From: an uncultured Candidatus Saccharibacteria bacterium
GTDB taxonomy: Bacteria; Patescibacteriota; Minisyncoccia; Sungbacterales; HO2-52-23
Length of the DNA: 64,000 nt
NCBI GenBank assembly: GCA_964585475.1
Contig: CAZPDF010000003.1
Span: 7,983 to 71,982 of the forward strand
Direction: 5' to 3'
Below the pieces are notes generated by a model, which had not been told where the DNA came from, searched no databases, and saw only the letters and a list, made by a program, of their open reading frames with translations. Shown piece by piece: positions 14-51,547 of this stretch. The translations under genes and the position numbers were made by a program. The first letter of the stretch is position 1. Each line of letters starts with the position of its first letter.

Positions 14-1393
14 TTAAGTACTATTTAGTTTTCTCACTTCTTCTTTGACTACTTCTCTGTCGTCCCAGGGAACCTTAGACCCATTCGGGCCCATGATCCA
101 TGACTCCGCGCCCTTGCCAGTGATAATAACCATGTCGCCCGCCTTGGCCGAGTGCAGGGCCGTACGGATAGCTTCGCGCCTGTCCAGAATTTTTCTTATG
201 GTTGGCGGTTGGCGGTTGGTAGTTGGCGGTTGCCGAAATCCTTGCACAATTTGTTCAAGGATTTCGGCGGGATTTTCGTCATATGGATCTTCATTGGTGA
301 GAATAATTTGGTCGCAAAAGCCCGTTGCAGTTTTTCCCATGACGGGCCGCTTCCATTTATCGCGTCCTCCACCAGCCGCACCCAAAACGCAAATCATGCG
401 CCCCCGGCCAGTCATCCTGAGTCCGCCGGTGGCGGAAGAAGGATCTCCTAGATTCTTCGCTTCGCTCAGAATGACGGAGCGATGCTGTAACGCACCATAC
501 ACCGCACGCAGTGAGTCGGGCGTGTGGGCATAATCGACAACCACCCCAAAGGGCGCGTGCTGGACAAACTCCATCCGCCCGGGAATTCCCGACATGCGTG
601 CGACAGCGCCTATGATTTTTTCCAATGAAATGCACAGGTTTAGGCCCGCGGAAATTGCCGCAAGTATGTTTAGAAAATTAAATTCCCCAAGGAGGGTAGA
701 GGAAATTGTGCGGCCGTTCACATCAAACGAAATCCCGCCGCCGCCAATCTCTATATTCTGTAGGACATGGGTTCTCTCTCCCATCACAACGCCTTCCTTG
801 CCATACCAATTTTTTTTTGCGGAGGTTGCCGAGGAAAACCTTTGCGCGTACGGGTCGTCACGGTTAATAATGGCCGCACCGTCCCTCGGCAGACGCCAGA
901 AAAGGTCAAGTTTTGCCCGAAGATAGCGCTCGAAGCTTCCGTGCGCCTCGATGTGCTCTGGGGAAACGTTGGTCATGACCGCCATGCGAAAATTGATGAA
1001 ACGGTGCCGGAATTGTTTCGTGCCCTCCGACGTCACTTCCAAAACCGCATGCGTGCAACCCGCGCGCCTGGCCTCATGCAAGAATTTCTGCAGGAAAAAT
1101 CTGCCCGGCATGGTCATTTTCTTATCATTTTTCTCCTCGCGGTCCTTTATGCGAAAACGCAGTGAGGATGCAGACGCGGTTTTCAGGCCGGCCTCGCGCA
1201 AAATCTCATGTATTAATTCCACGACGGTAGTTTTACCCTTGGTGCCGGTAACACCGATAACCATTAGCCGCCGCGACGGGAAACCGTAAAACAGCGCCGC
1301 AAAGAAGGCGAGAAATAAATGGTAGGCGGGTCGCAGAAAAGAAAAAACGCGGCTCGGTATTAATTTTTTAAATATCGCAAGCGTACGCTCCAT
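14..1393 (-). CDS. murE: Mur ligase, most likely UDP-N-acetylmuramoyl-tripeptide ligase MurE; carries two in-frame repeat insertions
   Basis: GVTGTKGKTT P-loop motif typical of Mur ligases, then DYAHTPDSL and GGGRDKWKRPVMG C-terminal domain motifs. A 22-aa stretch SVILSEAKNLGDPSSATGGLRMT (nt 411-476) and a RQPPTTN repeat (nt ~196-236) interrupt otherwise conserved regions. Confidence 0.7.
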   Translation of the reverse strand: MERTLAIFKKLIPSRVFSFLRPAYHLFLAFFAALFYGFPSRRLMVIGVTGTKGKTTVVELIHEILREAGLKTASASSLRFRIKDREEKNDKKMTMPGRFFLQKFLHEARRAGCTHAVLEVTSEGTKQFRHRFINFRMAVMTNVSPEHIEAHGSFERYLRAKLDLFWRLPRDGAAIINRDDPYAQRFSSATSAKKNWYGKEGVVMGERTHVLQNIEIGGGGISFDVNGRTISSTLLGEFNFLNILAAISAGLNLCISLEKIIGAVARMSGIPGRMEFVQHAPFGVVVDYAHTPDSLRAVYGALQHRSVILSEAKNLGDPSSATGGLRMTGRGRMICVLGAAGGGRDKWKRPVMGKTATGFCDQIILTNEDPYDENPAEILEQIVQGFRQPPTTNRQPPTIRKILDRREAIRTALHSAKAGDMVIITGKGAESWIMGPNGSKVPWDDREVVKEEVRKLNST

Positions 1394-4057: not shown

Positions 4058-4127
4058 TGCTTTCATTATAAAACAAATGGCTCGCCAAAGAAAATGGCCG
4101 CAAGTATGCCCGGTAGTAACTCTTCGA

Positions 4128-4200
4128 CTGTCGAACACTCAACGTATTGAGTGCTCGACAAAAAACGGCAGTAGTCGAAGACTACTGCCGGGTATGCGGC
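4128..4200. terminator. two adjacent hairpins between convergently ending minus-strand genes
   Basis: GTCGAACACTCAA-cgtat-TTGAGTGCTCGAC is a near-perfect inverted repeat. CGGCAGTAGTC-gaa-GACTACTGCCG is a perfect one. Confidence 0.45.
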
Positions 4201-12984: not shown

Positions 12985-13085
12985 AGACGAATAGCCGCGA
13001 ATCCTTGACGAATGAACGCGAATCGCGAATCCGCGCGGATCCTAAATAATCATTCGTGATTCGTGAAAATTCGTTGGTCATTCGT
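12985..13085. repeat. CACGAAT/ATTCGTG-rich palindromic intergenic element, copy 1
   Basis: Five CGAAT copies followed by five ATTCG(TG) copies around a central GGATCC. Confidence 0.5.
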
Positions 13086-13587
13086 GCAAATTCGTTTTAA
13101 GTATACGTTCGTGAAGATTCCTGCCGTGTTTAAATTTTATCCAGAGCGCAGATTTGGGTATCAATTTGCGAACATGGTTTGCCCACTCGATAGGAATTAT
13201 GGCATCCCGGTCTTTCAATAAGTTTTTGAGCCCGAGGTGTAGTAAATCTTTGGGAGAGTTGAGGCGGTAGCAATCAATGTGAATTAAGTGTCTTAACTTT
13301 GGGTTTTGGGCTTTGGGCCCCGCGCCAGAACCTATGGTTCGGTGCGGGGCATGCTTTGGACTTATTTGGTAAATCTTCATCAGTACAAACGTGGGGCTCA
13401 AGACATTTTCCTTTACTCCCAAGGCCCTGGCAAGTCCCTGAACAAAAGTCGTTTTTCCGGAACCCAAATTGCCTTCAAGGGCCAGTACCAAAGCCGACGA
13501 TCTCGGCTGCATTTTAAGAATCTTTTTGACTAATAAGGCCGCTGTTTTTTGGGTCTCGGTCGGGCTTTTCGTTTTAATTTCCAGCAT
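13078..13587 (-). CDS. tsaE: tRNA threonylcarbamoyladenosine biosynthesis protein TsaE
   Basis: LEGNLGSGKTTFVQGLARALGV P-loop and HIDCYRL motifs of YjeE/TsaE. Start assigned to the internal MLEIKTK. Confidence 0.8.
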   Translation of the reverse strand: MLEIKTKSPTETQKTAALLVKKILKMQPRSSALVLALEGNLGSGKTTFVQGLARALGVKENVLSPTFVLMKIYQISPKHAPHRTIGSGAGPKAQNPKLRHLIHIDCYRLNSPKDLLHLGLKNLLKDRDAIIPIEWANHVRKLIPKSALWIKFKHGRNLHERILKTNLHE

Positions 13588-13670
13588 AATATTCTCAGCG
13601 TAGCAATTTTTTCGGGAATTGAGAACGCCCGCTCCTTGAAGGAAACGGGCGTTTCTACTGCGGCGATCTG

Positions 13671-14153
13671 CTACCACCTGCCCTGCGCCATGCGCTGGCG
13701 GAAGTAGGCGTTGCCGTTCTGCCAGGATCCCTGGCAGGTCGACCAGAGCTCGGGGTCCGCGGAGTAACGGTCGCAGGCCTGAATCATGTGACCCGCATTG
13801 CCTGCGGCGTATCCGAACTGGTGAGCGTCGTTCCGCATGCTGGCCCGGATCGCACCGTAGTCATACACCGGCTGTGAGTACACAGGCGGGTAGTACACTG
13901 GCGCTGGCGGGTAGTACGCGGGTGTGACCGGGTAACAGCCGGGCATGAACTGGTTGCAGTGGGGGGTCATGGTGCCCCGGACAACGGTGTAGAGGGCGTC
14001 GGTGGCGATGTTGCCAGCCATATTCGCGAGCATGAGCTCGCCGAAACTGGGGCCCCTTCGCCCACCTGCCTCAGCCTGAGGCACCGGAAGAGCGATCGCC
14101 AGGACCGCGATAACCATGAGGATCGAAAGAGCGAGCATGCTGATCCTTCTCAT
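13671..14153 (-). CDS. secreted Pro/Tyr-rich small protein
   Basis: Signal peptide MRRISMLALSILMVIAVLAIALPVPQAEA. PAYYPPAPVYYPPVY tract. The DNA is locally GC-rich compared with its surroundings. Confidence 0.4.
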   Translation of the reverse strand: MRRISMLALSILMVIAVLAIALPVPQAEAGGRRGPSFGELMLANMAGNIATDALYTVVRGTMTPHCNQFMPGCYPVTPAYYPPAPVYYPPVYSQPVYDYGAIRASMRNDAHQFGYAAGNAGHMIQACDRYSADPELWSTCQGSWQNGNAYFRQRMAQGRW

Positions 14154-17530: not shown

Positions 17531-17565
17531 AAAAGAGGGCGCTACCCCTCCTAGTACCTATACCC

Positions 17566-17697
17566 AGTAGTAGTCTTCGGCAGTAATGTTAGGCGGCCCC
17601 GAATTTATAAGTAGAACACGGGTAACTCTAATAAGTTCTCGCGGTGAACACGCCCCTATTCTAGCGGCAAAGCTGCAGCCGAAGAGTTACTCCCGGG
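17566..17697. repeat. MITE-like element with imperfect ~20-bp terminal inverted repeats, copy 1
   Basis: 5' end ...CCAGTAGTAGTCTTCGGCAG and 3' end CTGCAGCCGAAGAGTTACTCCCGGGC are reverse complements of each other. Both termini are shared with the 21514-21697 copy. The core is different. Confidence 0.5.
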
Positions 17698-17786
17698 CAT
17701 AGAAAATCTACAAAAACTATACTAAATTATCCGGGTTCGGCCGAGTCCTGTCAATATGCTACTTATTATAACAAAATAAAAATATT

Positions 17787-20428: not shown

Positions 20429-20462
20429 CAATTGAAAATTGAAAATTGAAAATTGAAAATTG
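20429..20462. repeat. tandem octamer AATTGAAA x4 upstream of ruvC
   Basis: caATTGAAAATTGAAAATTGAAAATTGAAAATTGtg. Confidence 0.6.
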
Positions 20463-21502: not shown

Positions 21503-21513
21503 GCATGCCCGGT

Positions 21514-21697
21514 ATTAGTCTTCGACAGTAATATTATGCGGCCCCGAATTTTAAAATAGACCACATTGATTTTGTGAGGGCTTCAGAGCCGGCTCCGTCT
21601 ATCTGCGAGAAACACCCTGCCGAGAGGGTCGCCAAAGGCGAACCGGTCGAGGTTGTATTTACGGGGCAAAGCCGCAGCCGAAGAGTTACTCCCGGGC
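21514..21697. repeat. MITE-like terminal-inverted-repeat element, copy 2
   Basis: GCCCGGTATTAGTCTTCGACAG ... CGCAGCCGAAGAGTTACTCCCGGGC. Termini match copy 1; the core is longer. Confidence 0.5.
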
Positions 21698-21732
21698 GTG
21701 GATTTCGGCACTTGGCTCCACTTAAGAAATTT

Positions 21733-25698: not shown

Positions 25699-26802
25699 TT
25701 AGGACGCGCGTATGGGCATCACAACGTAAAGATACGATCCGCCGGATTTATTGCGCAGCATTGAGGGCGCGTTTTGAGAGTTAAGACCGAAGAATAGTTC
25801 CTCCTCGTCCAAAGCATTTAATCCGTCCAGTAAGAATCTGTGGTTAAAGCTCACGCTAATCCCTTTTCCGGTAACGGCGGCCGGGAGCTTGGTTTTGTAT
25901 TCTCCGATCTCTGTATTATTTGAGGCGATCTCGAGTACCCCTTTTTTTTCTTGAATAGTGAGCGCCACCTCTTGCATTTTGGAGGTAAAAATGCTTGAGG
26001 CGCGAATGGTATCAATCAGACCTTCCCGTTTTAGAAAACACGTGGTTTCGAAATTTTTGGGAACAATGGATGAGTACTCGGGAAAAACCCCATCAATAAG
26101 GCGGGAGATCACCCGCAGGCCCCCGGTTTGAAATTCCACTTGATTCTCCCCGAGTGAAATTTTTACGTCGTCGTCTCCGCCCAAAATTCTTGCAAGCTCG
26201 GTGCTCACGCGTTGCGGCAAGATAAACGAAAAATTGCCCCCTTCGTTATTTTTTAGAATCGGCGCTTGGTGCTCGGCTAGCCTGAAGGTGTCGGTTGCTG
26301 CCAGCTGCAGACTTTTCTCTGTAATTTTAAAATAGACGCCCGCTAGCTCCGGCTTGAACTCGGATAAAGATACAGCCGGAATTACCCTTTCCAAGCCCCT
26401 TTTTAATTGAAAACTCTCCATGGCACATGTGTTCTTTTTTTTTATTTTGGGGAGAAGCGGGAAATCTTCCGCGGAAATGCCGTTAATTCTTATATCTCGC
26501 GCCGGGGTTTTAACAAATAAGTTCCCTTGTTTTTCTTCGAGTTCGATTTTTTCCTCTCGTAATGACTGGAGGAGTGAACTTATGATCTTGGCCGGAACGC
26601 TAATCTGCCCTGGGCGAACCCCCTCTCCTGGAAGAATAACTTCCACTGCATACTCAAGGTTAGTTGCAATTATCTTCAACGAATTTTTTTCTACCTCCAG
26701 CAGCACATTTCCCAATATGGGAAGGGTGGCATTTTTCCCGGAAAATCTTTCGGCAATCATCACGGCCGGGGCCAAATTTTCCTTCATGCATGAAAATTTC
26801 AT
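25699..26802 (-). CDS. dnaN: DNA polymerase III beta sliding clamp
   Basis: Three-domain clamp pattern (MKFSCMKENL...ATDTFRLAEH...). Adjacent to dnaA. Confidence 0.9.
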   Translation of the reverse strand: MKFSCMKENLAPAVMIAERFSGKNATLPILGNVLLEVEKNSLKIIATNLEYAVEVILPGEGVRPGQISVPAKIISSLLQSLREEKIELEEKQGNLFVKTPARDIRINGISAEDFPLLPKIKKKNTCAMESFQLKRGLERVIPAVSLSEFKPELAGVYFKITEKSLQLAATDTFRLAEHQAPILKNNEGGNFSFILPQRVSTELARILGGDDDVKISLGENQVEFQTGGLRVISRLIDGVFPEYSSIVPKNFETTCFLKREGLIDTIRASSIFTSKMQEVALTIQEKKGVLEIASNNTEIGEYKTKLPAAVTGKGISVSFNHRFLLDGLNALDEEELFFGLNSQNAPSMLRNKSGGSYLYVVMPIRAS

Positions 26803-27022
26803 AATTTTACATGGGACCCCATTTTAACAACAATAATAATAAATTACGTTATATTTAAATTTATTGTTATTATTAGAGAAAGACAACCTGTGGATTCGAT
26901 GGATTTGTTAAGTAAGTAACACATTCTTGGCGCAAAAGCTGGCAGGTATATGTTGGGTAAACCCTGTGCGAAAAATAGAAAAGAGTAGGCGGCTCGCGAT
27001 ATCCCCTGGCCGCACCCACACT
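26803..27022. promoter_or_regulatory. candidate oriC (AT-rich unwinding element plus DnaA-box-like nonamers) between dnaN and dnaA
   Basis: AT-rich palindrome AACAATAATAATAAATT...AATTTATTGTTATTATT. TTATCCATA (8 of 9 identity to TTATCCACA) and TGTGGATTC nonamers. Confidence 0.45.
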
Positions 27023-28423
27023 TTATCCATAGTAAACCTTATCTCTAACCAAGCGGATTTCCTCCTCCAGTTCAGTGTTTATTTTCAGCAAATTAGCAAT
27101 TTTTTCACAGGAGTGGATGGCCGTTGTATGGTCACGGCCGCCGAATCTTTCGCCGATGGAAGGGTAAGAGCTCTTGAGTTCGTCGCGCATCAAGTACATC
27201 GCGATTTGCCGCGGCTTCACAATATCACGCCTCCTAGAATGACTGATGAGCTCCCGTTCTTCAATATCGTAAAATTCGGACACCGCCTTCAAAATTTTCT
27301 TAGCGGACGCAAACTTTTTGGCAACGGTTTGGTGATTCGAGAGAATTTTTTTTACGGCCTCCACGTCCACGGGGGCGGAGGAGAGTTTAGCCGCCATGAC
27401 CACGCGGTTTAAGGCCCCCTCTAGCTCCCGGATGTTGGTTTTAATCACCTCGGCAACATGTTCAAGCACCGCATCCGGAAGAGAAACGGACTTGGCGGAG
27501 GCCTTGGTCTTCAGTATGAGAAGTCGGGTTTCAAAGTCAGGAAGGCCGATGTCCGCAATCATGCCTCCCTCAAACCGCGAGCGGAGGCGTTCTTCGAGGG
27601 TGGGGATCGCGCTCGGCGGCCGATCGGACGAAATAACAATCTGCTTATTTTTTTCAAATAACGAATTGAAAGTATGGAAGAATTCTTCCTGCATCTTCTC
27701 GGTCCGGGCAATAAACTGGATATCGTCGATAATAAGGAGATCAACCCCGCGGTACTTTTCTTTGAGCCGGCCCATTTCCTGGTTTTTTAACGCATCCACG
27801 ATCTCGCCCATATACTTCTCTGAAGGAACATAGCGCACGCGTATCCCCGGAGTTTTCTTTAGAAGCTCGTTACCTATGGCTTGGATCAGGTGCGTTTTAC
27901 CAAGGCCGACCCCGCCGTATATGAAAAGAGGGTTATAACTTGTGCCTGTATTTTTTATGACCGATTGGGAGGCGGCGTGTGCCAGTTCGTTAAAGGAGCC
28001 GACTATGAAATTGTCAAAAGAATACCGGGGATTAAGGTTGGTCTCCGGGTCGACCAAAAGCTCCCTCATGGAGAGCTCGTCTCCCTCGGATGGCGGCAGG
28101 GGCCCCACGCGTTTCCGTTTGGCCAGACGGTCTTTTAACGCCACGGCCACGCCTGCGCCTTCAGGTTTGCCGATAACGTAGCTCACGTCCTTGATCTCGG
28201 AGGAGATTTCCCGCAGGGCGTGAAGAATTGTCTTGTGGTATTTATTCTGCAGCCATTCCCGGGCGAATCCATTCGGAACAAAAACGGTGGCGATCCCGCC
28301 GTCCACCTCCGTAATTCCTGTCTCCTGAAACCAGGTAAGAAAACTAGGACGCGAAATATTAAGTTCGATTTTTGCCAGAACGGCTTGCCAAAGTTCGGTC
28401 TTTTCCATAAGGATCAAAAACAC
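27023..28423 (-). CDS. dnaA: chromosomal replication initiator DnaA
   Basis: AAA+ Walker A GGVGLGKTHL. C-terminal DNA-binding domain. Confidence 0.95.
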   Translation of the reverse strand: MFLILMEKTELWQAVLAKIELNISRPSFLTWFQETGITEVDGGIATVFVPNGFAREWLQNKYHKTILHALREISSEIKDVSYVIGKPEGAGVAVALKDRLAKRKRVGPLPPSEGDELSMRELLVDPETNLNPRYSFDNFIVGSFNELAHAASQSVIKNTGTSYNPLFIYGGVGLGKTHLIQAIGNELLKKTPGIRVRYVPSEKYMGEIVDALKNQEMGRLKEKYRGVDLLIIDDIQFIARTEKMQEEFFHTFNSLFEKNKQIVISSDRPPSAIPTLEERLRSRFEGGMIADIGLPDFETRLLILKTKASAKSVSLPDAVLEHVAEVIKTNIRELEGALNRVVMAAKLSSAPVDVEAVKKILSNHQTVAKKFASAKKILKAVSEFYDIEERELISHSRRRDIVKPRQIAMYLMRDELKSSYPSIGERFGGRDHTTAIHSCEKIANLLKINTELEEEIRLVRDKVYYG

Positions 28424-28591
28424 GGTTGTTTAACGCACAAGGTCTATTATACAATATATTTGCAACCCGGCCCCTATGCAGATTTGTGGAAAGGGTGTTG
28501 ATGGCCTGTGAATAAAAAAAACGTTGACTGCCGGGCGAAACGTTGCATAAAAATTTGACTATAAAAACCCTTTATTGTATGTTTTGTTAAT

Positions 28592-28726
28592 ATGTCCGTT
28601 ACCTATCAGCCGTCGAAAATTAAGAGAAAGCGCGCCCACGGGTTCAGGAAGCGAATGAGGGGGTCGACCGGGCGCCGAGTGCTTGCGAGACGCCGAGCCA
28701 AAAAGCGGGAGAAACTTAGCCCATGA
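28592..28726 (+). CDS. rpmH: 50S ribosomal protein L34
   Basis: [44 protein letters not shown]. Stop overlaps the rnpA start (ATGA). Not in the supplied ORF track because it is under 60 aa. Confidence 0.85.
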
Positions 28727-29055
28727 AAAAGCTCTATCGGTTGCAGGGCCACCGTGAGTTTAGGGCGCTGCTTTCTCGCGGACGCAGAAGAGATGCCCCC
28801 CTATTTCGGATTATATTCAAGCAGAGCGACCTGGTTCATTCCCGATACGCCTTTGTTGCTTCGCGCGCAGTGGACAAAAGATCTGCAGCGCGCCACCGGC
28901 TCATTCGACGCGCCAGAGAATGGGCCAGGAAGCAGCCGAGCCGGGCGGCGAGCAAGTTCGACATAGCCATTTTTTTTAAGAAAGACGCGGCGCGGGCCCC
29001 GCGTAAAATATTTTATGAAGAACTCGACAAAACATTTTCCGAAATTACTCGCTGA
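28723..29055 (+). CDS. rnpA: ribonuclease P protein component
   Basis: Basic RnpA pattern in the conserved rpmH-rnpA position. Confidence 0.85.
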
Positions 29056-29296
29056 TCTTGCTGTATTTATTCTCCGTTTCTATCAAAAAACAATTTCGCC
29101 CGATCACGGAATTTTAGCCGGTGTTTGGGGAGGAGCACGGTGCCATTTTTTTCCTTCCTGCTCAGAATACGCGGTCGCCGCCATCCGTCAATATGGACTA
29201 ACATGCGGGTCTGTGGTGTCGCTTAAAAGAATTGCGCGCTGTCATCCGTGGAGTGCGGGAGGGTACGACCCCGTAGTCTTAAAACCGAAATCCTAA
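29015..29296 (+). CDS. yidD: membrane protein insertion efficiency factor YidD
   Basis: GGARCHFFPSCSEYA with the conserved cysteines. Lies between rnpA and yidC. Confidence 0.8.
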   Translation: MKNSTKHFPKLLADLAVFILRFYQKTISPDHGILAGVWGGARCHFFPSCSEYAVAAIRQYGLTCGSVVSLKRIARCHPWSAGGYDPVVLKPKS

Positions 29297-29320
29297 ACCC
29301 GAAATTCTAAACCGACCGTA

Positions 29321-29430
29321 GGTCGTCCTGAACGAAGTGAGGTCCCTAAGTCGCCGGAGGCGACCGGGATCCCGGCCGAAGGCCTAGGGAGAACTCGGGG
29401 CTCCTTCGTCGCTTCGCTCCTCAGGACGGC
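29321..29430. repeat. GTCATCCTGAGCG-family palindromic element (RPE-like), copy B, nested in a larger palindrome
   Basis: GTCGTCCTGAACGAAGTGAGG ... CCTTCGTCGCTTCGCTCCTCAGGACGGC. Flanked by inverted CCTAAA/TTTAGG tracts (29290-29475). Confidence 0.6.
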
Positions 29431-29477
29431 GTCCTAAGGGACGTCAGTTTAGGATCTAGTGCTTAGGATTTAGAATT

Positions 29478-30218
29478 TTGAATCCATTCAATTTTGTCTA
29501 CACAGAATTTCTATGGCGCCCGTTATTTAACGGGCTCGTTTGGCTCTATGCGGTTATTCCGCCGCACGATCTTGGCCTGGCCATTGTTATCCTAACGGTC
29601 CTGATTCGGGCTATCCTCACCCCCCTGCTTCTTCGTGCACAGAAATCACAGCGCGACTTTGCGCGCCTTCAGGGCGAGATCAAGCAGATCCAGGAAAAAT
29701 TTAAAGGGCATCGTGATGCTCAGGGAAAAGCAACAATGGAGCTTTACCAGCGTGAAAAGGTAAACCCCTTTTCGGGCTGTCTTATGGTACTTATTCAGGG
29801 CCTCGTGCTCTTTACTCTATTCCCGCTCTTTCGCCAGGCTCTGGACCCGGCCATGCTTGTCTTTCTTTACGCATTTGTGTCAAACCCCGGGCCGATGAAT
29901 ACCATAAGTTTCGGGGTTCTTGATCTTGCCCAAGCTAATCTATATTGGGGGGCGCTCGCGGCGGTAAGCCTCTATTTCCAAACCAAACTCGGCGCTCCGG
30001 CTCTTCCCGCCGCCTCCGGCCCGAACGATTTTTCCCGCATGCTGCAGAAGCAGATGCTCTACATGCTGCCGGTTATGATTTTCTTCTTTTCGATGAGTCT
30101 TCCCGTCGCCATCACGCTTTACTGGACAATTTTAAACATTCTTGGTATCGTGCAGGAGATCCTAGTACGCAAGTTCCAAATTCCAAGCGCCAAAGTACAA
30201 ACAAATTCCAAGACCTAA
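29478..30218 (+). CDS. yidC: membrane protein insertase YidC (short form)
   Basis: Five-transmembrane short YidC pattern. Follows yidD. Confidence 0.85.
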   Translation: MNPFNFVYTEFLWRPLFNGLVWLYAVIPPHDLGLAIVILTVLIRAILTPLLLRAQKSQRDFARLQGEIKQIQEKFKGHRDAQGKATMELYQREKVNPFSGCLMVLIQGLVLFTLFPLFRQALDPAMLVFLYAFVSNPGPMNTISFGVLDLAQANLYWGALAAVSLYFQTKLGAPALPAASGPNDFSRMLQKQMLYMLPVMIFFFSMSLPVAITLYWTILNILGIVQEILVRKFQIPSAKVQTNSKT

Positions 30219-30309
30219 GGCCTAAATTCCAGACACGTTTCGAAACCAGAGCGTTAGAATTTCGGTATTGTTTGTGATTTGGAATTTGTGATTCTGGATT
30301 TTAAGGAAG

Positions 30310-30765
30310 ATGGACCCGGAAATTATAAAAAACGAAATTAAGGAGGTGCTCGACAAAATGAGTTACGGCGAAGAGCTTGAAGCGATTGAGGCCCACCAAG
30401 GCACCACCAGCCGTTTTAGTGTGCGCGTCCGAGGAGAGGCCAATATGCTGATTGGCGAGCACGGAGCGAACCTCGCGGCCCTCGAGCATGTTTTGAAAAA
30501 AATAATTCAGAAAAAATACGGCGAGGGCCACAAATTTACTTTGGACATAAATGACTATCGCATGAAGCGGCTTGAGGACTTGAAGCAAGACGTAAAAGCG
30601 GCAGCGAAAGATGTAAGATTGTATCGAAAAGACGTTCCGCTGCGCGCCATGTCGTCCTTTGAGCGAAGGATTGTCCATCTTCTCCTTGCCGAATACCCCG
30701 ACATTACTACGGAATCAATCGGGCAGGAGCCGGAGCGCAGGGTGGTGATAAGGCCGTATCCATAA
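30310..30765 (+). CDS. jag: Jag/KhpB-like RNA-binding protein (KH + R3H)
   Basis: C-terminal R3H domain (FERRIVHLLLAEY). Conserved position after yidC. Confidence 0.7.
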   Translation: MDPEIIKNEIKEVLDKMSYGEELEAIEAHQGTTSRFSVRVRGEANMLIGEHGANLAALEHVLKKIIQKKYGEGHKFTLDINDYRMKRLEDLKQDVKAAAKDVRLYRKDVPLRAMSSFERRIVHLLLAEYPDITTESIGQEPERRVVIRPYP

Positions 30766-32065: not shown

Positions 32066-32548
32066 CTAAGGGCAGAACCCCGAAGCCGGAGCTGGCATGG
32101 GCGCCCCGGCCGGCTGGAGGCAGCGTAGATTTTGTACCCACCCGGCTCCGCCAACCAGGTCCGGGTTAATGGTGAACAGGATAAGATAGGAAAGCAGGGC
32201 AAGAACTAACCCCAATACGGCATTGCCCATATAATCGCGTGCGGTTTTGGCGCGCGACTCGCTGTCTCCGGCCGTAAGGTACATAATTCCTCCGATGACG
32301 AGCATGATGAGTGCGGAAATACCCACCAAACTTAAACCGAAGACATAGAGGCGGGCGAATATCTGTCCTATATCAAGCCCAACGTTTAGGAACTCAAGTC
32401 CCGGAACTTGCGCTTGCGCAATTGCGGCGAGTTCCACACAATGCCCTCCACCGCCGTTTCGGCAGGCGGCATCTACCCCAGAGCCATAAACGAATGCCGT
32501 AAAGAGGAGTACCGCGGCACCTAGATAAAAAATAGTTTTTTTCGTCAT
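32066..32548 (-). CDS. VirB2/TrbC-like type IV secretion pilin candidate
   Basis: Signal peptide followed by two hydrophobic helices separated by a short polar loop (LVGISALIMLVIGGIMYLTAGDSESRAKTARDYMGNAVLGLVLALLSYLILF). The 4-bp overlap with the upstream gene suggests one operon. Confidence 0.45.
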   Translation of the reverse strand: MTKKTIFYLGAAVLLFTAFVYGSGVDAACRNGGGGHCVELAAIAQAQVPGLEFLNVGLDIGQIFARLYVFGLSLVGISALIMLVIGGIMYLTAGDSESRAKTARDYMGNAVLGLVLALLSYLILFTINPDLVGGAGWVQNLRCLQPAGAPMPAPASGFCP

Positions 32549-33801
32549 TGCAGTATTAGGTCTATTATTTTTTCCGCCGGAGGAGCAAAGGAATTATTGC
32601 GCCCGATGCGTAAAGTTACCGAAGTTTTTCTGGCGGGCTGATTTTGGGTATCCACCGTAAGAAGGTGCGCATTTTCCGGAGAGCCGCTGATCTCATTTCC
32701 TCCGACATCCCAGACATAAGTAAGACTTTTTCTAGAGGTTACCGGAAAGAAAAATGGCTCCGCGATAAAATCCACCAGACCCCTTGTATCCGACGCAAAC
32801 GCGAAAATAGCTCGTCGCGTCTCAATGCCGCCAAGAGGCGAGGAACCATATATAACGGCGCGAGGGGTATAGGCGGGAACGAAGATTGTTTTTTCTTTGC
32901 GAATTCGCTTATTTGCGTCTTCAACGGTCAGACGGATAACGTGTGACGCGCCCGGCAAATCGGCCATTTGCACACGGAATATTTGTCTACCTACGCCAGC
33001 AAGCACGGGTTTTTGTTCGTCCAGCCCCCAACGGTAGATGAGAGTTTCCGGGCGCAGCATAACACCGCCCATTACAAATTGCGGAATTGCCGTAATCGCA
33101 ACCACTGATCCTTGCGAAGGCAGGGTCCTGCCTTTGTACCACTTGGGAACGTATGTTTCGGCGGACCACGTAACCGCGAGGTCGGATACGCGGATGGTGA
33201 GCGAGGCAGAATTTATTGTACCGTCCGGCCGCGACACGCGCACGTTCAGGGTTTCGGCTGATCCAACCCCGCCGGCAGTAAGGGCAAAGGTGTGTTTGCC
33301 GGGCCCGGAGAGATCGGAGCGGAAAACGCCGTTTACCGTCCAGGAGAAAGTTGCAAAATTCCTGTCGTAGGTCGGCATTCGCGCTTCAACCGTTATGGTT
33401 TCGCCAGGGGAAGGAGAACTTGGCGTAGCGACCACCAAGAGCGGTTCCTTAAGCTCCGAGAGCACAGAAGGATTAAATACATCCGACGGGACAGGAAAAG
33501 CGCTGGAAGGAACCTGGGGAGAGGTAGTGCCAAAAAGAGCCGAAAAGTCGGGGAGGGTTTGGGCGGACACAGCAAGGGCCACCAGGAGTCCCGCCGCCGC
33601 CAAGGCCGTTATCCACGCCCCAGAAGACCACGGGCTTGCCCGCGGACGAGTGGGTCTTCTGGAGGCGGGATTCCGCCCCTCGGCCAAGCCTGCAGGGCCT
33701 GACCGTAACGCAGGGGCACCACGGGCTTGCCCGAGGGGCTCCATTTTTGAAACCTTACGCATGTTCATATTTATTATACTTCCAAAAAGACCCGGCGTCA
33801 T
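32545..33801 (-). CDS. secreted or membrane-anchored hypothetical protein of the T4SS-like cluster
   Basis: N-terminal hydrophobic helix. Ser/Thr/Val-rich beta-rich sequence. Overlaps the VirB4 stop. Confidence 0.4.
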   Translation of the reverse strand: MTPGLFGSIINMNMRKVSKMEPLGQARGAPALRSGPAGLAEGRNPASRRPTRPRASPWSSGAWITALAAAGLLVALAVSAQTLPDFSALFGTTSPQVPSSAFPVPSDVFNPSVLSELKEPLLVVATPSSPSPGETITVEARMPTYDRNFATFSWTVNGVFRSDLSGPGKHTFALTAGGVGSAETLNVRVSRPDGTINSASLTIRVSDLAVTWSAETYVPKWYKGRTLPSQGSVVAITAIPQFVMGGVMLRPETLIYRWGLDEQKPVLAGVGRQIFRVQMADLPGASHVIRLTVEDANKRIRKEKTIFVPAYTPRAVIYGSSPLGGIETRRAIFAFASDTRGLVDFIAEPFFFPVTSRKSLTYVWDVGGNEISGSPENAHLLTVDTQNQPARKTSVTLRIGRNNSFAPPAEKIIDLILQ

Positions 33802-35633
33802 TAGGCCTTCGCGCCGGCCGCAAATTCCTCTTTGGCCTTTTTAATAAGTAAAAGCTGGGCCGGGTCAGAGGTAATAATCTGGTCTTCGGTGTAGGACCCG
33901 ATTACTTTTATCGCCACGTGCTTCAATCCGGCAAAGAATATTCCTTCCCCCCGCTCTGATTCAAGCAGGAGGAATTTTTCCTCCTCGGTCAGGTTGAAGG
34001 TTTGCATGACGAAATCAATGGTGGCGGGAGACTGCCGAAGAAGCATCTGCATGGAGGAATTGGTGATAATCGGTTTTCCGTAGGGAGAGTTAAAAAAGTC
34101 GCCCACGTCCTGCGTGACCGTGGTGAGCCCGAGATAGTACTTGCGTGCTCTTTTGGCAATGCCGAAAAGAAAAGATGCCCCGTCCTCGTGTTTCATCAAC
34201 CACCAGGCCTCGTCCACCACGAGGATCCTTTTTTTCAGGCGCGTGCGTATCTCGTTCCAAATAAACCGCAAGATAAGGAATATTCCCACCGCCCGCAGTT
34301 CGTCCTCCATGTCTCTTACGGAGAACACCACCAAGCGATTATTCATCTCGATATTGGTCGGCTGGTTGAAGAAGCCGGACCAGGTCCCGGTGGTGTATTT
34401 TTTCAGGCGCATCGCAAGATTTTCTCCGCCGGCGGTTGAGGCCAGAATCAGTTCAAGATCCGATAGGATCGGCGGAGTGATTTTCGAAAAGTCGGATTCA
34501 GGCGTGATGTCCCGCGAGGCGTAGGTTTCAGTAATTGCTTGATCAAGTATGGCATCCTCCTCGGCGGTGATCCCCCCCAGCATAATCCGGAAAAGCCCGA
34601 CCAAGTTTATGATGTTTGATCGGAGAACGTCTGACGGCGATTCATCCTCCCGAGGGACCGGAAGATCAAAAGGGTTTATGTGGTGTTTGGATGTAAGGGA
34701 GATGCCGATGTAGGAGCCGCCGACAACCTGCGCCAGATACTCATATTCTCGCTCGGGATCAATAACGATGACATCCGTATCCCACATAAGAGAGCGGATG
34801 ATTTCGAGCTTCATCAAATAGCTTTTTCCACCGCCGGAAATCCCGAAGATTACGGAATTGGCGTTGGGCAACGAGAATCGGTCAAAAAGTATCAAGCTGT
34901 TATTGTGGCGATTGATTCCGTAGAGAATGCCTTTATTTGAAGTAAGGTCAAACGACACAAACGGGAAAGTTGACGAAACGGGTGAAGAGTTGAGGTAGGT
35001 GTTGATTCCGAGTTTGTCGATGTTTAACGGGAGGACGGACTGGAAGCCCTCGGTCTGTTGGAAGAGGGCTGGCTTGGTATAGACCAGGCGCGACTCAAAA
35101 AGGGATTTAATTTCCGATTCGGTTTTATTTAGTTCCTGCTCCGAATAGCCGTAGATCGTAATATATAGGCCGAAGTTAAAAATTCTCTCAGTGGCCTGCT
35201 GGAGTTTGTCGCGGAGCTCCTCAAGGTCCTGGTGGGCGGTGTCCAGTATGGGGTCGCGGACGAGGCCCTTCTCCTCGCGCGCCGCAATCTGGGAACCCAC
35301 CTGCGCGACTTTACGGCGGAGCGTCTTTAGCATTGATCCGGTATCCACCGGATGGATGAACATAGAGACGTCGAATATTTTATCCAGATTTATAACGGGG
35401 CTGAACCAGGCCGTATGGAGGTAGCGCGGATAGGCGAAGATGAAAATGGTTCTGGCAAGTTTAGCTCCGAGGCGAATAAACGTCGGGTTGACTTCAAGCG
35501 CAGAGGGGGAGAGAACGTCTTTTAACGCAAGTTCGCCGGCCCGGTATATTTCTTCCGGGAAAACAGCAAAAATCTCCGATTCCGGATCTTTTTTAGTTTT
35601 AGTTCCAAAGAGTGAAACCACGAATATGTGCAC
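33801..35633 (-). CDS. VirB4/TrbE/CagE-family T4SS ATPase, C-terminal ATPase portion
   Basis: Walker A GISGGGKS and Walker B ILVVDEAWW. VirB4-type C-terminal domain. Begins with GTG, in frame with the upstream N-terminal ORF. Confidence 0.85.
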   Translation of the reverse strand: MHIFVVSLFGTKTKKDPESEIFAVFPEEIYRAGELALKDVLSPSALEVNPTFIRLGAKLARTIFIFAYPRYLHTAWFSPVINLDKIFDVSMFIHPVDTGSMLKTLRRKVAQVGSQIAAREEKGLVRDPILDTAHQDLEELRDKLQQATERIFNFGLYITIYGYSEQELNKTESEIKSLFESRLVYTKPALFQQTEGFQSVLPLNIDKLGINTYLNSSPVSSTFPFVSFDLTSNKGILYGINRHNNSLILFDRFSLPNANSVIFGISGGGKSYLMKLEIIRSLMWDTDVIVIDPEREYEYLAQVVGGSYIGISLTSKHHINPFDLPVPREDESPSDVLRSNIINLVGLFRIMLGGITAEEDAILDQAITETYASRDITPESDFSKITPPILSDLELILASTAGGENLAMRLKKYTTGTWSGFFNQPTNIEMNNRLVVFSVRDMEDELRAVGIFLILRFIWNEIRTRLKKRILVVDEAWWLMKHEDGASFLFGIAKRARKYYLGLTTVTQDVGDFFNSPYGKPIITNSSMQMLLRQSPATIDFVMQTFNLTEEEKFLLLESERGEGIFFAGLKHVAIKVIGSYTEDQIITSDPAQLLLIKKAKEEFAAGAKA

Positions 35634-35702: not shown

Positions 35703-35779
35703 GTTATCCTGAACGCAGTGAAGGATCTTTATTCCTCGGTATATCATACGGTTGAGGTGCTTCGCTTCGCTCAGCATGA
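35703..35779. repeat. GTCATCCTGAGCG-family palindromic element, copy C, between the two VirB4 ORFs
   Basis: GTTATCCTGAACGCAGTGAAGGA ... GCTTCGCTTCGCTCAGCATGAC. Confidence 0.65.
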
Positions 35780-35837
35780 CATTTTGAGACTCTTTTCTAC
35801 GGTTTCATCTTATCCCCGATCTGGTACATGTTCGTGG

Positions 35838-36482
35838 CTAGCTTGCGGCAGTTACCACTGCTTTCTCAAACTCCGTCGGGTTATAGAGCCCGTAGAATAG
35901 CTCGATCAGTTCCTCTGTATTCAGCGGGGCCGAGCGCACGCCAACCCGCTGGAGCCCTGCCACCACCGTATCTACCCTCTGCCAGAGCTGATTTTTGTGT
36001 TCTTCAAAAGAATCTCCTGTCCCGCCCGCCGTTTCTTTTTTGGCCAGGCCCAAGGCGGAGGTGAGTCCGCCGAGTATCCCTTTTTGTTCGAGCATCGGGG
36101 GGGTAAAGGGCACGACGGCGTAGAAAGTTTTGGACATGATGTTGGTCATCTCCACGAACGTTTTTATAAATTCCATGTATTCGGTAACCTGTATTTTTAA
36201 AAGTTCGTTGTCCTCCTCTTTCTGTCGTGTCTGTAGTGACTCAAGGTAGGGCGCGACGTTAAGGCGTCGCGAATGGACCACAAATTGCAGCGGAAAGTCG
36301 AGGGAATTCAAAAAATTCTGGTATTGGAAAATAATCGCGTCCTGTTCATCGCTTGATTTGAGAGCGAAGTTTAGCGAGGAGCACATAAGAATTACGCGAA
36401 GCCCGCCGTCTTTTAAGATGGCCGTGTCTTCCCGAACGGTTTCAATCGCCAAAAATTGTTGGGCTGATGCGCCAGTGGGCAT
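35838..36482 (-). CDS. VirB4-family N-terminal domain (separate ORF, same frame as the ATPase portion)
   Basis: REDTAILKDGGLRVILMCSSLNFALKSSDEQDAII resembles the VirB4/TraE N-terminal domain. The stop lies 204 nt upstream of the ATPase ORF's GTG start. Confidence 0.55.
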   Translation of the reverse strand: MPTGASAQQFLAIETVREDTAILKDGGLRVILMCSSLNFALKSSDEQDAIIFQYQNFLNSLDFPLQFVVHSRRLNVAPYLESLQTRQKEEDNELLKIQVTEYMEFIKTFVEMTNIMSKTFYAVVPFTPPMLEQKGILGGLTSALGLAKKETAGGTGDSFEEHKNQLWQRVDTVVAGLQRVGVRSAPLNTEELIELFYGLYNPTEFEKAVVTAAS

Positions 36483-36527: not shown

Positions 36528-36905
36528 TTAGGGACGGTGGACGATCCGCTTGTAACGGACACCGGTTTTCGAAAAAAGTGTAAGTATTCCCAAGCGCAGT
36601 TTCGCCGCCTTCAGATAGCTATAAATCTGCTTGCTGTCTTGTGCATAAAATCTGGACGCAACTTTTAATTCCAACACTATTTTATTTTCTATCAGAAAAT
36701 CTAGCCGATACTTCCCCGCCTTTTTGCCTTCGTACTCCAGCGGGATTTCGATCTCTTTTTGGTAGACCAGGCCGAGTTTATCAAATTCGTGGGCAAGCGC
36801 GCGCTGATAATACTGTTCTCTATAGCCATGCCCGAGTGTATTGAAAACCTTGAAAATCGCCCCAATTATTTTATAACTTAGTTCTTTATACAAGATTTCG
36901 GGCAT
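36528..36905 (-). CDS. GxxExxY family protein (PD-(D/E)XK-like)
   Basis: YEGKKAGKYRLDFLIENKIVLELKVASR matches the GxxExxY family core. Confidence 0.65.
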   Translation of the reverse strand: MPEILYKELSYKIIGAIFKVFNTLGHGYREQYYQRALAHEFDKLGLVYQKEIEIPLEYEGKKAGKYRLDFLIENKIVLELKVASRFYAQDSKQIYSYLKAAKLRLGILTLFSKTGVRYKRIVHRP

Positions 36906-37374: not shown

Positions 37375-37477
37375 ACAAGAATATAGAACTTAGGTCTTAG
37401 AACCGGTTACGACTTTCTTATATTATCGCAGAGTTCCACGGGCTTGCCCGTGGGTATCTACATTCTCTCCGCGGCTA

Positions 37478-41645: not shown

Positions 41646-41789
41646 GTCATTCTGAGCGCAGCCGAGCGAAGCGAGTCCTGAGCGATAGCGAAGGAGCCCA
41701 TACGAGAGACCCCTCACTGCGTTCAGGGTGACACTCCATGTCAGATTCTTCACTTCGTTCAGAATGACGATCGAAGGGTTCAGGACGAC
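41646..41789. repeat. GTCATCCTGAGCG-family palindromic element, composite copy D
   Basis: GTCATTCTGAGCGCAGCCGAGCGAAGCGAGTCCTGAGCGATAGCGAAGGA ... CTTCACTTCGTTCAGAATGAC ... GGTTCAGGACGAC. Confidence 0.6.
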
Positions 41790-41820
41790 AACGTGTAAAA
41801 ACGTTTACTCACCACCAGTT

Positions 41821-44072: not shown

Positions 44073-44075
44073 CTA

Positions 44076-44150
44076 AAAACCACAAATATGCACACGAATT
44101 TAGCACGAATAACACAAATATAATTATGTTTCATTCGTGCGATTGGTGGG
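44076..44150. repeat. CACGAAT/ATTCGTG-rich intergenic element, copy 3
   Basis: CACGAAT x2 and ATTCGTG within an AT-rich palindromic context. Confidence 0.4.
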
Positions 44151-45005
44151 TGATTTGTGCATCAATTGGTGGGCTAGCTTTACCCATCCTTCAAGCGAGA
44201 GCTCTTGCGGGCGGGCCGTATCTTTCAGGCCGGCTTTTTTTATTGCCTCGAGCATGTGGTTTTTATCTAAGAGTTGAGTGAGAGAACGCGCCAGCGTTTT
44301 TCTTTTCTGCGAAAAAGCCCGACGAAGAATCTCAAAGAAACGTGCCTTATCTATGCTATTTTCTTCAAAAAATCGTCCCGAAATATCGGCGATTTTTATT
44401 ATCGCAGACTCCACTTTCGGCTGTGGCGAAAAACAGGAAGCCGGGACGGTTTTTATAACTTCCGGTTTCCCAAAGGCCTGAACCGAGAGCGCAAGAAGGT
44501 TCATTTGGGGGGGGCGAGCGCACATTCTTTCGGCGACTTCTTTTTGTATCGTTAATACGATTTGATTTGGTCTCGGACCGTTTTCGAGGAGCAACCGGAT
44601 TAGTCGAGAGGTAAGGTAATAAGGAATGTTGGCCACGACTTTGTAATCTGTGCTGCTATTAACGCCATCCTGAGCGCGAGCGAAGGACCTATGAGGTTCT
44701 TCAGTCCGGCTTCTGCCGGACTTCAGAACGACGTTTTTATGAATACGAAGAACGTCTCCGGGGATCACGGCGACATTATTAATCCCCTCTTTACGGAGGG
44801 AATTTTCTAATTCTTCGGCCATTCTTTCGTCTTTTTCCACCGCAATCACTTTCCCGGCGTGCTTCGCCAGCTCTCGCGTCAAGACCCCGGTTCCCGGACC
44901 GACCTCCAGAACCGTATCGTCCGAGTTTATATCTGCGGCTTTGATAAGAGTAGAAATTACCCACCGGCAGCGTAGAAAATGTTGACCTAGTCGGGCGCGC
45001 ACCAT
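44124..45005 (-). CDS. rsmA: 16S rRNA (adenine1518/1519-N6)-dimethyltransferase RsmA/KsgA with an in-frame repeat insertion
   Basis: LGQHFL, VLEVGPGTG (SAM-binding) and VVANIPYY motifs. A 23-aa insert VLKSGRSRTEEPHRSFARAQDGV is encoded by the palindromic element at 44664-44732. Confidence 0.85.
   Translation of the reverse strand: MVRARLGQHFLRCRWVISTLIKAADINSDDTVLEVGPGTGVLTRELAKHAGKVIAVEKDERMAEELENSLRKEGINNVAVIPGDVLRIHKNVVLKSGRSRTEEPHRSFARAQDGVNSSTDYKVVANIPYYLTSRLIRLLLENGPRPNQIVLTIQKEVAERMCARPPQMNLLALSVQAFGKPEVIKTVPASCFSPQPKVESAIIKIADISGRFFEENSIDKARFFEILRRAFSQKRKTLARSLTQLLDKNHMLEAIKKAGLKDTARPQELSLEGWVKLAHQLMHKSPTNRTNET
44664..44732. repeat. GTCATCCTGAGCG-family palindromic element, copy E, in-frame inside rsmA
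   Basis: CCATCCTGAGCGCGAGCGAAGGACC ... GGACTTCAGAACGAC. Confidence 0.65.
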
Positions 45006-45042
45006 AAAGCTCCAAACTACAACTGATCGATAATTCAAAATT

Positions 45043-51484: not shown

Positions 51485-51547
51485 GTCATCCTGAGGGAGC
51501 GAAGCGACTGAAGGAACCCTGAGTTCCTTCACTTCGTTCAGGACGAC
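51485..51547. repeat. GTCATCCTGAGCG-family palindromic element, copy F
   Basis: GTCATCCTGAGGGAGCGAAGCGACTGAAGGAACCCTGAGTTCCTTCACTTCGTTCAGGACGAC. Confidence 0.65.

Follow-up and report, generated by a model that had tools for sequence, protein, structure and literature searches.

Six short palindromes lie scattered over a stretch of 64,000 nucleotides from an uncultured bacterium of the candidate phyla radiation (CPR; contig CAZPDF010000003.1, hereafter the window), two of them inside the essential genes murE and rsmA and four between genes. What are these palindromes, and how did they come to stand within essential genes? An earlier note, made from the sequence alone, had listed them as one family with inverted termini and had compared them with the Rickettsia palindromic elements (RPEs). 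All six sites are present (E1 to E6, Table 1); only the end of the third had to be moved, from 35779 to 35780 (78 bp). The elements are probably a previously unlisted variant of a hairpin class that is known from the literature as CGTC-tagged repetitive extragenic palindromes (REPs) and as Ssn-related motifs (SRM; NTS in Neisseria).

The arm and its inverted dimers

The repeating unit is a single arm of about 25 nt and not the whole palindrome. Its degenerate consensus, GTCRTYCTGARCGMAGYGAAGRAWC, occurs in inverted pairs at the six loci. The arm is composed of an unpaired (C/T)GTC tag, a 5-bp stem that opens with A-T and T-A, two tandem G·A mismatches, a variable apical stem of at least 2 bp and a GNA triloop. 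The canonical form reads GTC-ATCCT-GA-GC-GAA-GC-GA-AGGAT-C. The inverted termini of the earlier note are thus not terminal inverted repeats (TIRs) of the transposon type: every arm folds on itself as a tagged hairpin, which the elements carry as inverted dimers and, in one case, as a nested cluster. Inverted arm pairs do stand at all six loci, but the termini are degenerate and share no single fixed sequence. The reading GTCATYCTGAGCG is found in some arms only, besides GTCGTCCTGAACG, GTTATCCTGAACG and GCCATCCTGAGCG in others.

In the window, arm motifs are 6-11 times more common than in shuffled sequence. GTCATYCTGAG is matched seven times with at most one mismatch (1.1 expected; none of 100 shuffles reaches seven), and YCTGARCGNAGYGAAG nine times with at most two mismatches (0.8 expected). 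Repeat finding places the arms in one family at 72-88% identity, and the copies can be aligned as the single family that had been assumed. The spacers are unrelated between copies. The GTC tag is intact in 9 of the 14 arms or arm fragments of the window. Exceptions are GTT at 35703, GCC at 44664 and 29430, and the truncated arms at 41675 and 41789.

A 25-mer pattern in which one stem pair was left free yielded 202 non-redundant matches. An inverted partner is found within 220 nt of 74 of these arms, and the remaining 128 are solitary. Where a partner is present, the dimers have a median length of 81 bp (10-90% range 66-109 bp), and those of the window measure 63-110 bp. Since a partner accompanies only 74 of the 202 arms, the window elements are ordinary dimeric forms of a unit that can also stand singly. 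The base preceding GTC in the exact arms is typically T (168 of 202, 83%) or C (24, 12%).

The arm shows clear covariation. The pair left free in the pattern is T-A in 116 of the 202 matches and C-G in 85, with a single T-G and no C-A. A pairing-neutral pattern, in which the unpaired positions alone were fixed, was applied to 229 kb of sequence fetched solely for encoding a GIY-YIG protein and gave 67 matches (1.7 expected). These comprise 44 unique arms with many different stems, among them ATCCT, ATTCT, ATGTT, ACTTC, ATTTC, ATCCC, ATACT and ATGCT, each facing its own complement. In an alignment of 36 arms, six of which are from the window, 97.1% of the cells pair (80% in shuffles) and 54 double-sided changes are found (14 expected), neither value being reached in 500 shuffles. 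Compensatory changes occur in six of the seven pairs and include some G-T pairs, and controls with a slid register are paired at 24-52%.

The apical part is exchanged as a unit. Partner arms replace GCGAAGC by unrelated hairpins of 3-10 bp, for instance GGGCTTTAGCCC or GGCCTGCC...GGCAGGCC, and such replacements are carried by the murE copy (TCCGCC-GGT-GGCGGA) and the rsmA copy (TCCGGC-AGAA-GCCGGA). ACGAAGT and ACGCAGT, two variants present in the window, are compensated forms of GCGAAGC that recur in other phyla. The older biophysical literature ascribes extra stability to sheared G·A pairs and to the minihairpin d(GCGAAGC), and tandem G·A pairs together with a GNA triloop are a signature of DNA minihairpins. 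A hammerhead-like reading of CUGA...GAA was rejected by inspection, as the core positions G8 and A9 are absent. A loose structural descriptor of the arm proved noisy (14 matches, 5 expected) and served as a locator only.

Folded as single-stranded DNA (ssDNA), the copies at 411, 44664 and 51485 clearly surpass their shuffles (z of -3.6, -3.8 and -4.8), but the other three do so weakly or not at all (z of -0.7 to -2.6; Table 1). An independent Logan contig (assembly of SRR8863434) spans window positions 41742-51549 and ends at an arm on both sides, namely at the edge of the arm 41744-41768 of E4 and at E6. Contig breaks of this kind are expected of multi-copy sequence, and the arms are multi-copy in the community.

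Distribution, nuclease genes and known repeat classes

The family is not peculiar to this lineage. In public collections, the exact 25-mer GTCATYCTGAGCGAAGCGAAGRATC is present on 58 viral contigs and on at least 120 genome contigs; the latter represent about 15 phyla among the matches listed. By our own estimate, the chance expectation is far below one match. The matches listed include Acidobacteriota, Nitrospirota, Chloroflexota, Bacteroidota, Bacillota, Gemmatimonadota, Verrucomicrobiota, Planctomycetota, Cyanobacteria (the complete genome of Calothrix PCC 7716), Ignavibacteria, Omnitrophica, Bdellovibrionota, alpha- and delta-proteobacteria, and Patescibacteria including Gracilibacteria and Saccharimonadales.

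Outside the window, the arm is linked to small nuclease genes. An iterative profile search of 178 loci selected by the arm detected four GIY-YIG open reading frames (ORFs), all of them within 150 nt of an exact arm. Their products are single-domain proteins of 93-116 aa that match PF01541 only. In the reciprocal test, 35 of 80 metagenome loci chosen by GIY-YIG homology have an arm core within 250 nt of the gene, and the density of arm cores is 2.36 per kb near the gene and 0.20 per kb farther off, a 12-fold local enrichment. The gene is usually preceded by a plus-strand arm at 30-120 nt and followed by a minus-strand arm at 30-90 nt. One Parcubacteria contig has 11 arms within 20 kb; on it, 12 nt separate the end of a dimer from the GIY-YIG start codon (ATG), and a further arm lies just past the stop codon. 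The GIY-YIG family is very large and includes entries from Patescibacteria and Parcubacteria. NCBIfam holds no specific model for the arm-linked proteins, and the PDB solely distant UPF0213 relatives.

Two of these loci have further features. In a Parcubacteria locus resembling a diversity-generating retroelement (L263/L264, 9502-11951), the arm-flanked GIY-YIG gene lies between bAvd and a reverse transcriptase gene and appears to have been inserted into another retroelement. On contig L265, two GIY-YIG genes and two 23S_rRNA_IVP genes are encoded within 6 kb.

The first class that these arms resemble is the superfamily of CGTC-tagged REPs, CGTC-1 to CGTC-4 (Di Nocera, De Gregorio and Rocco 2013, BMC Genomics 14:522, PMC3733652). 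Its members have an unpaired CGTC or TGTC (or CCTC) tag, a stem with an AT opening, a short loop and a tail. They frequently form dimers with spacers of 20-100 bp, and in-frame intragenic copies encode 20-30 aa (PMC3733652). The arms described here share the unpaired C/TGTC tag, the stem opening A-T and T-A, the inverted and often heterodimeric arrangement with spacers of up to about 100 bp, and the in-frame copies (here 22 and 23 aa). They differ in the stem, which is of 5 + 2 bp and broken by G·A pairs, in the loop of 3 nt and in the C(T)C tail; published members have an uninterrupted stem of 8-9 bp, a loop of 4-5 nt and a CCA-like tail (PMC3733652). The published families are known from five phyla and mostly from alpha-Proteobacteria (PMC3733652), in contrast to the about 15 phyla, CPR included, among the matches listed for the present arm. 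The same authors concede that bulged variants may have been missed, and they found no associated transposase.

The second class are the NTS and SRM repeats and their nuclease Ssn (Chenal et al. 2025, Nat Commun 16:2388, PMC11893778). The Neisseria NTS, CGTCATTCCCGCGMAVGCGGGAATCYRG, and related SRMs flank ssnA, and the unit NTS-ssnA-NTS resembles an insertion sequence. SsnA is a single-domain GIY-YIG protein of 94 aa that binds the hairpin and cuts just upstream of it. It cuts the hairpin strand only, as ssDNA, and is inactive on double-stranded DNA (dsDNA), on RNA and on the opposite strand (PMC11893778). Common to both systems are the (C/T)GTC tag, a hairpin that opens with ATTC or ATCC and closes with GAAT or GGAT followed by C (CGTCATTC-CCGCGAAGGCGG-GAATC in NTS, (T/C)GTCATYC-TGAGCGAAGCGAA-GRATC in the present arm), hundreds of dispersed copies, and a wide spread over phyla. 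The arm-gene-arm layout with single-domain GIY-YIG genes of 92-116 aa is shared as well, for the arm family elsewhere and not for the window. Differences are found in the apical half of the arm, which is imperfect here, with tandem G·A pairs and a 2-bp minihairpin with GNA triloop, and in the position of the copies, as NTS is seldom intragenic (2%, PMC11893778) in contrast to two of six copies in the window. In addition, NTS is linked to ssn, and the surveyed sequence contains no ssn gene. The survey covered 73 kb, that is, the window and 8.9 kb of the same contig beyond its start; the latter was taken from the ENA contig ERZ27284378 k139_312523 (112,882 bp), of which the window is the reverse complement of positions 40026-104025.

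The likeness to RPEs, which the earlier note had drawn, stands for the in-frame palindromic inserts; its picture of anatomy and distribution needs revision. According to the accounts in PMC10969869 and PMC3733652, RPEs are palindromes of a reduced genome, in which unrelated housekeeping genes retain them as peptide inserts that keep the frame and have no stop codon, and the classic RPE-1 is about 150 bp long and encodes a conserved peptide (Ogata et al. 2000/2002, as cited there). RPE-6 has been classed as CGTC-1, together with the Neisseria repeat dRS3, and RPE-4 as CGTC-4 (PMC3733652). Since the present arms share the tag and the AT stem of this superfamily, the comparison is closer than an analogy, by way of the published classing. 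Inserts in unrelated protein genes at positions compatible with the fold (in the model, the MurE fold is kept) are common to both. Differences are the phylum, the fraction of intragenic copies (two of six here) and the peptides, which are unlike between the present copies.

The earlier note knew of no characterisation of such elements, which holds for CPR bacteria as far as the literature was found to go, but not for the class itself, which was described as CGTC REPs in 2013 and as Ssn-related motifs in 2025. The Ssn paper (PMC11893778) does not mention CPR or Patescibacteria. A full-text literature search for the arm sequence returned unrelated primer matches only, and no relevant printing of the arm.

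Several points weigh against placing the elements in this class, or against a role of the nuclease. The published SRM pattern, HGTCWYN(0-2)YYVSBRHN(0-5)WNVSBRGN(0-2)RNCYNB, matches the NTS control but no window arm and neither canonical 25-mer; its sole match in the window, at 52803, is unrelated to the arms (shuffles give 0.3). Nor do the arms have the stem and loop dimensions of the CGTC families, although the AT opening agrees and the apical hairpin is variable. Because pattern and dimensions both fail, the elements are filed as a variant and not as members of a listed family. With nearest-neighbour DNA parameters, a lone arm folds at -2.7 kcal/mol (z -0.6), in contrast to -8.9 kcal/mol (z -4.2) for NTS, so that it is covariation on which the hairpin model is based. 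The 36-arm alignment omits 14 of the 44 unique arms, eight with a shifted register (ATTGC type) and six that are atypical or due to chance. Three of the six window copies are degenerate and fold no better than shuffles. A strand asymmetry has been proposed for d(ATCCTGAGCGAAGCGAAGGAT) and its complement; standard DNA parameters yield none for the single arm. The linkage is incomplete, with 45 of the 80 GIY-YIG loci lacking this arm core; these probably carry other arm types. Neither the window nor the 8.9 kb beyond its start contains a GIY-YIG gene or an additional arm, and no transposase domain is present among the window ORFs scanned or in the adjoining 8.9 kb. For mobilisation by Ssn, finally, no experiment has been reported for any member of the class (PMC11893778).

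An RNA-level function would be the foremost alternative, though an improbable one. In this case, as has been proposed for classical REPs, the hairpins would stabilise transcripts, mark sites of processing or serve as attenuators where neighbouring genes are transcribed together, and the conservation would be that of an RNA structure. All four intergenic copies sit between co-directional genes, the covariation includes some G-T pairs, and many REPs are argued to be transcribed (PMC3733652). However, a dimer puts one G/A-rich arm on each strand and so leaves no orientation bias to exploit, two copies are located inside coding sequence, and the window matches no Rfam family at gathering thresholds or even at E≤1, four tRNAs excepted. 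The linked enzyme class acts on ssDNA and not on RNA or dsDNA, the tandem G·A pairs with the triloop bear the mark of a DNA minihairpin, and identity of a 25-mer across phyla is hard to square with local regulatory roles.

Still less probable is mobilisation by a REP-associated tyrosine transposase (RAYT), an HUH enzyme of the IS200-IS605 type, in place of a GIY-YIG nuclease. The architecture would fit: REPIN or bacterial interspersed mosaic elements, like the present dimers, are tagged imperfect hairpins whose inverted doublets make up a larger hairpin, without target duplication, with a single-copy gene flanked by the repeats, and Chenal et al. (PMC11893778) themselves liken the NTS system to REPIN/RAYT. 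The tag, however, is GTC here and GTAG there, and no transposase has been tied to CGTC REPs (PMC3733652). The genes next to the arms encode GIY-YIG nucleases and not HUH tyrosine transposases (no search of the arm-selected loci with the Y1_Tnp model was made), and the scanned window ORFs contain no transposase domain.

Classical miniature inverted-repeat transposable elements, moved in trans by a DDE transposase through their TIRs, are a very unlikely explanation. Size (63-144 bp), inverted ends and dispersed copies would agree with it, as would an rve-family integrase encoded on the same contig just outside the window. Against it, no target-site duplications or flanking direct repeats are visible at any of the six copies, as is expected of hairpin or ssDNA elements. 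The spacers are unrelated, the solitary arms (128 of 202) identify the single arm as the unit, and TIRs have no need of self-complementarity and covariation within each arm.

Insertions in murE and rsmA

The two intragenic copies are genuine in-frame insertions, as the earlier note had stated. In murE, the insert starts exactly at a codon boundary and adds codons 307-328, VILSEAKNLGDPSSATGGLRMT, without a stop. It lies in the C-terminal domain between the DYAHTPDSLxxVY helix and the (K)LICVLGAAGGGRD strand and cuts the Pfam match to Mur_ligase_C in two. In rsmA, 69 bp (44664-44732) add 23 residues, VVLKSGRSRTEEPHRSFARAQDG, between GDVL and YKVVANIPYY. An independent assembly of SRR8863434 encodes the same RsmA including the insert.

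Neither peptide is found in about 240 relatives. The MurE peptide is missing from all of the best 120 relatives (53-64% identity, up to 68% on re-alignment) and the RsmA peptide from all 119 non-identical relatives. Solved MurE structures lack the insert as well; the alignment of Thermotoga MurE (4BUB) covers both flanks and passes over query residues 298-324. In an AlphaFold2 model of MurE built from 71 sequences, the fold is kept (mean pLDDT 91.5). Here the insert prolongs a helix (292-315) and then runs on as coil; confidence drops under 70 solely in its distal part (about residues 311-330) and pLDDT under 50 solely at residues 322-328. Both inserts map to hypervariable loops that are indel hot spots among relatives. 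In the same loops, relatives carry peptides such as NSKLQIPNSK and KSDFN, which look like translated heptanucleotide or period-14 tracts. It can hardly be that the two segments are ancestral, lineage-specific loops that merely resemble palindromes: the loops do vary in length among relatives, but the peptides occur in none of them, the right arm of the murE copy is identical to the 25-mer of at least 120 contigs of other phyla, and the same arms recur at four intergenic sites of the window.

The MurE loop has received such an insert more than once. Another CPR MurE, P0047 (JGI sample 3300021357, L180 3766-3891), has in the same loop a 75-bp GTC-tagged dimer that is independent and of a different subfamily, with arms GTCATTGCGAG... 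paired with GTCATCGCGAGGGCGAAGCCC.... Read from its sequence, the canonical arm has no stop codon in two of the three frames of either strand. Elsewhere, six of 64 testable arm copies (about 9%) are located in long open frames, among them one in a TatD-like and one in a terminase-like gene. The earlier idea that the elements spread as in-frame insertions is better read as survivorship in permissive loops, given that both host loops are indel hot spots and about 9% of the testable copies lie in long frames. The open frames of the arm, the indel-prone loops and the independent dimer of P0047 at the same loop likewise argue for filtering by selection.

Both inserts are presumably translated and tolerated; at the protein level, peptides that would mark their translation are VILSEAKNLGDPSSATGGLR and SGRSRTEEPHR. 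A further candidate is the TsaE ORF (13078-13677, minus strand), which is about 50 aa longer than usual and has its Pfam match in two stretches. Its extra loop, SPKHAPHRTIGSGAGPKAQNPKLR, may be another repeat-derived insert.

Genomic context, further repeats and proposed history

The coordinates of the copies, arms and host genes are collected in Table 1.

Table 1 Palindromic copies of the window with their arms, host genes and neighbours, and the related dimer of another CPR MurE
Feature	Coordinates	Strand	Description	DNA fold against shuffles (z)
murE	14..1393	-	459 aa, host of E1	
E1	411..476	-	inverted dimer inside murE, translated from the - strand as residues 307-328	-3.6 and -3.1
E1 left arm	411-445	+	GTCATCCTGAG[TCCGCCGGTGGCGGA]AGAAGGATC	
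E1 spacer	446-450			
E1 right arm	451-475	-	GTCATTCTGAGCGAAGCGAAGAATC, identical to the pan-bacterial 25-mer; C476 on the - strand completes the CGTC tag	
E2	29321..29430		110-bp degenerate dimer, rnpA-yidC spacer	-1.6 and -2.6
E2 arm	29322-29346	+	GTCGTCCTGAACGAAGTGAGGTCCC	
E2 arm	29401-29430	-	GCCGTCCTGAGGAGCGAAGCGACGAAGGAG	
E3	35703..35780		78-bp dimer in 204-nt spacer between two co-directional type IV secretion genes	weak, -1.5 and -0.7
E3 neighbour	35838-36482		214-aa ORF	
E3 neighbour	33801-35633		VirB4-like ATPase	
E3 arm	35703-35727	+	GTTATCCTGAACGCAGTGAAGGATC	
E3 arm	35756-35780	-	GTCATGCTGAGCGAAGCGAAGCACC	
E4	41646..41789		nested compound of at least 5 arms or arm fragments, intergenic	no better than shuffles
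E4 neighbour	40733-41599	-	ORF	
E4 neighbour	41821-42945	-	ORF	
E4 arm	41646-41674	+		
E4 arm	41675-41698	+		
E4 arm	41708-41732	-	GTCACCCTGAACGCAGTGAGGGGTC	
E4 arm	41744-41768	-	GTCATTCTGAACGAAGTGAAGAATC	
E4 partial arm	41769-41789	-		
rsmA/ksgA	44124..45002	-	292 aa from ATG at 45002, host of E5	
E5	44664..44732	-	69-bp dimer inside rsmA/ksgA, translated from the - strand as 23 residues	-3.8 and -2.8
E5 arm	44664-44690	+	GCCATCCTGAGCGCGAGCGAAGGACCT	
E5 arm	44695-44732	-	GTCGTTCTGAAG[TCCGGCAGAAGCCGGA]CTGAAGAAC	
E6	51485..51547		63-bp dimer between the following two genes	-4.8 and -4.9
E6 neighbour	50532-51425	-	ORF	
E6 neighbour	51660-53849	-	pnp	
E6 arm	51485-51517	+	GTCATCCTGAGGGAGCGAAGCGACTGAAGGAAC	
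E6 arm	51523-51547	-	GTCGTCCTGAACGAAGTGAAGGAAC	
P0047 dimer on L180			arms GTCATTGCGAG... and GTCATCGCGAGGGCGAAGCCCGTGGCGATC; insert reads ASDQRERGNPEDRHGLRPRDD	

The host of the window is a CPR bacterium close to Candidatus Sungbacteria (Parcubacteria), as judged from its closest MurE and RsmA relatives, which are 60-64% identical and, where named, belong to Sungbacteria or Patescibacteria. The window has a G+C content of about 50% and encodes dnaN-dnaA, rnpA-yidC-jag, a type IV secretion cluster and many housekeeping genes. Its first 6 kb have no match in a plasmid collection. In the region 25699-30765, dnaN, dnaA, a gap, rnpA, yidC and jag follow each other and the cumulative GC skew has its minimum near 28 kb. 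Gene order and skew suggest the replication origin region. Within it, the rnpA-yidC spacer is unusually long (420 nt) and is occupied by E2.

The earlier note had also placed the third copy in a gap that splits virB4. E3 is simply intergenic: the stop codon of the 214-aa ORF lies 58 nt outside the element, and in an exhaustive search of 1.8 billion representatives most homologues of this ORF are complete proteins about 200-250 aa long, and among the top 150 a single one is near 800 aa. Since these homologues mostly stand alone, the two-gene arrangement is native, and a split virB4 can be ruled out. A small PDDEXK_3 gene (PD-(D/E)XK nuclease, 36528-36905) is wedged into the secretion cluster and adjoins E3; a second one is located on the same contig (L261 14454-14858). 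About 6-9 kb before window position 1, the contig further encodes bAvd beside a reverse transcriptase (RVT_1; L261 17202-20241), the typical gene pair of a diversity-generating retroelement. The rve-family integrase mentioned above lies at the contig end.

Other repeats are frequent in the window. Period-14 tracts are found at 29280-29313, 30271-30302 and 51442-51472; such low-complexity tracts flank E2 and E6 and extend their palindromes, and the right flank and arm of E6 are 84% complementary over 61 nt to the left flank and arm of E2. Tandem heptanucleotide tracts are common (200-232, 1885-1908, 2503-2541, 20430-20462, 46771-46805 and 62846-62879). Two of them are coding, namely GGTTGGC x4.7 in murE, read as QPPTTNRQPPT, and TAGTTGG x4.9 in a class-I aminoacyl-tRNA synthetase ORF (62511-63824). 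A second repeat family has three copies (17560-17703 and 21505-21702 on the plus strand, 4105-4197 on the minus strand) with conserved, mutually complementary ends ATACCCGGTAGTAGTCTTCGACAG and CAGCCGAAGAGTTACTCCCGGGCAT and a variable interior of about 20-170 nt. It has no Rfam match at E≤1 and may be either a structured RNA not yet listed or a further small mobile element. The perfect 18-nt palindrome CCACGGGCAAGCCCGTGG occurs four times (33621-33645, 33712-33736, 37429-37453 and 58217-58254), twice inside the ORF 32545-33801 of the secretion cluster, and may represent another hairpin repeat family or a shared terminator.

For the hairpin dimers, the likeliest history is as follows. Dimers would have entered the genome through a hairpin-directed copying process that works on single strands and needs an Ssn-type nuclease; the autonomous-looking form of the class is arm-ssn-arm. 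That an Ssn-type enzyme drives this mobilisation step is offered tentatively, as a serious possibility; recognition of this particular arm by such an enzyme is predicted from the linkage of arm and gene. Insertions into essential genes would have survived only in surface loops, with the frame kept and free of stops, which could explain the inserts of 22-23 aa in MurE and RsmA. The window copies are probably non-autonomous relics, read through in two genes and intergenic elsewhere. This is the simplest reading, because they are diverged and no nuclease is encoded nearby. They look passive and give no sign of a new cellular function. A host function might be considered by analogy with the control of transforming DNA proposed for Neisseria; nothing here points to it.

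The partnership of CGTC REPs and SRM-Ssn would thereby be extended to CPR bacteria, by an abundant arm type that both the published SRM pattern, tested directly, and the CGTC dimensions miss. Recognition of the arms aids annotation, as metagenome assemblies break at them and they give rise to small spurious ORFs (…LSEAK…, …SLRMT, …RFAQDD) and to extra peptide loops in conserved enzymes. With the arm, a clean, near-universal natural substrate is at hand for testing whether transposition is an activity of Ssn nucleases. It is a more speculative and somewhat unlikely idea that GTCATYCTGAGCGAAGCGAAGRATC marks a distinct, exceptionally widespread lineage of a putative transposon class, in which an Ssn-type nuclease of about 95 aa mobilises its flanking hairpins as well as gene-less dimers. 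If true, the identity of the 25-mer across the about 15 phyla among the matches listed and in phage contigs would reflect ongoing transfer between phyla and not ancient inheritance, and in the ultra-small genomes of CPR bacteria the element would actively supply essential proteins such as MurE and RsmA with loop insertions.

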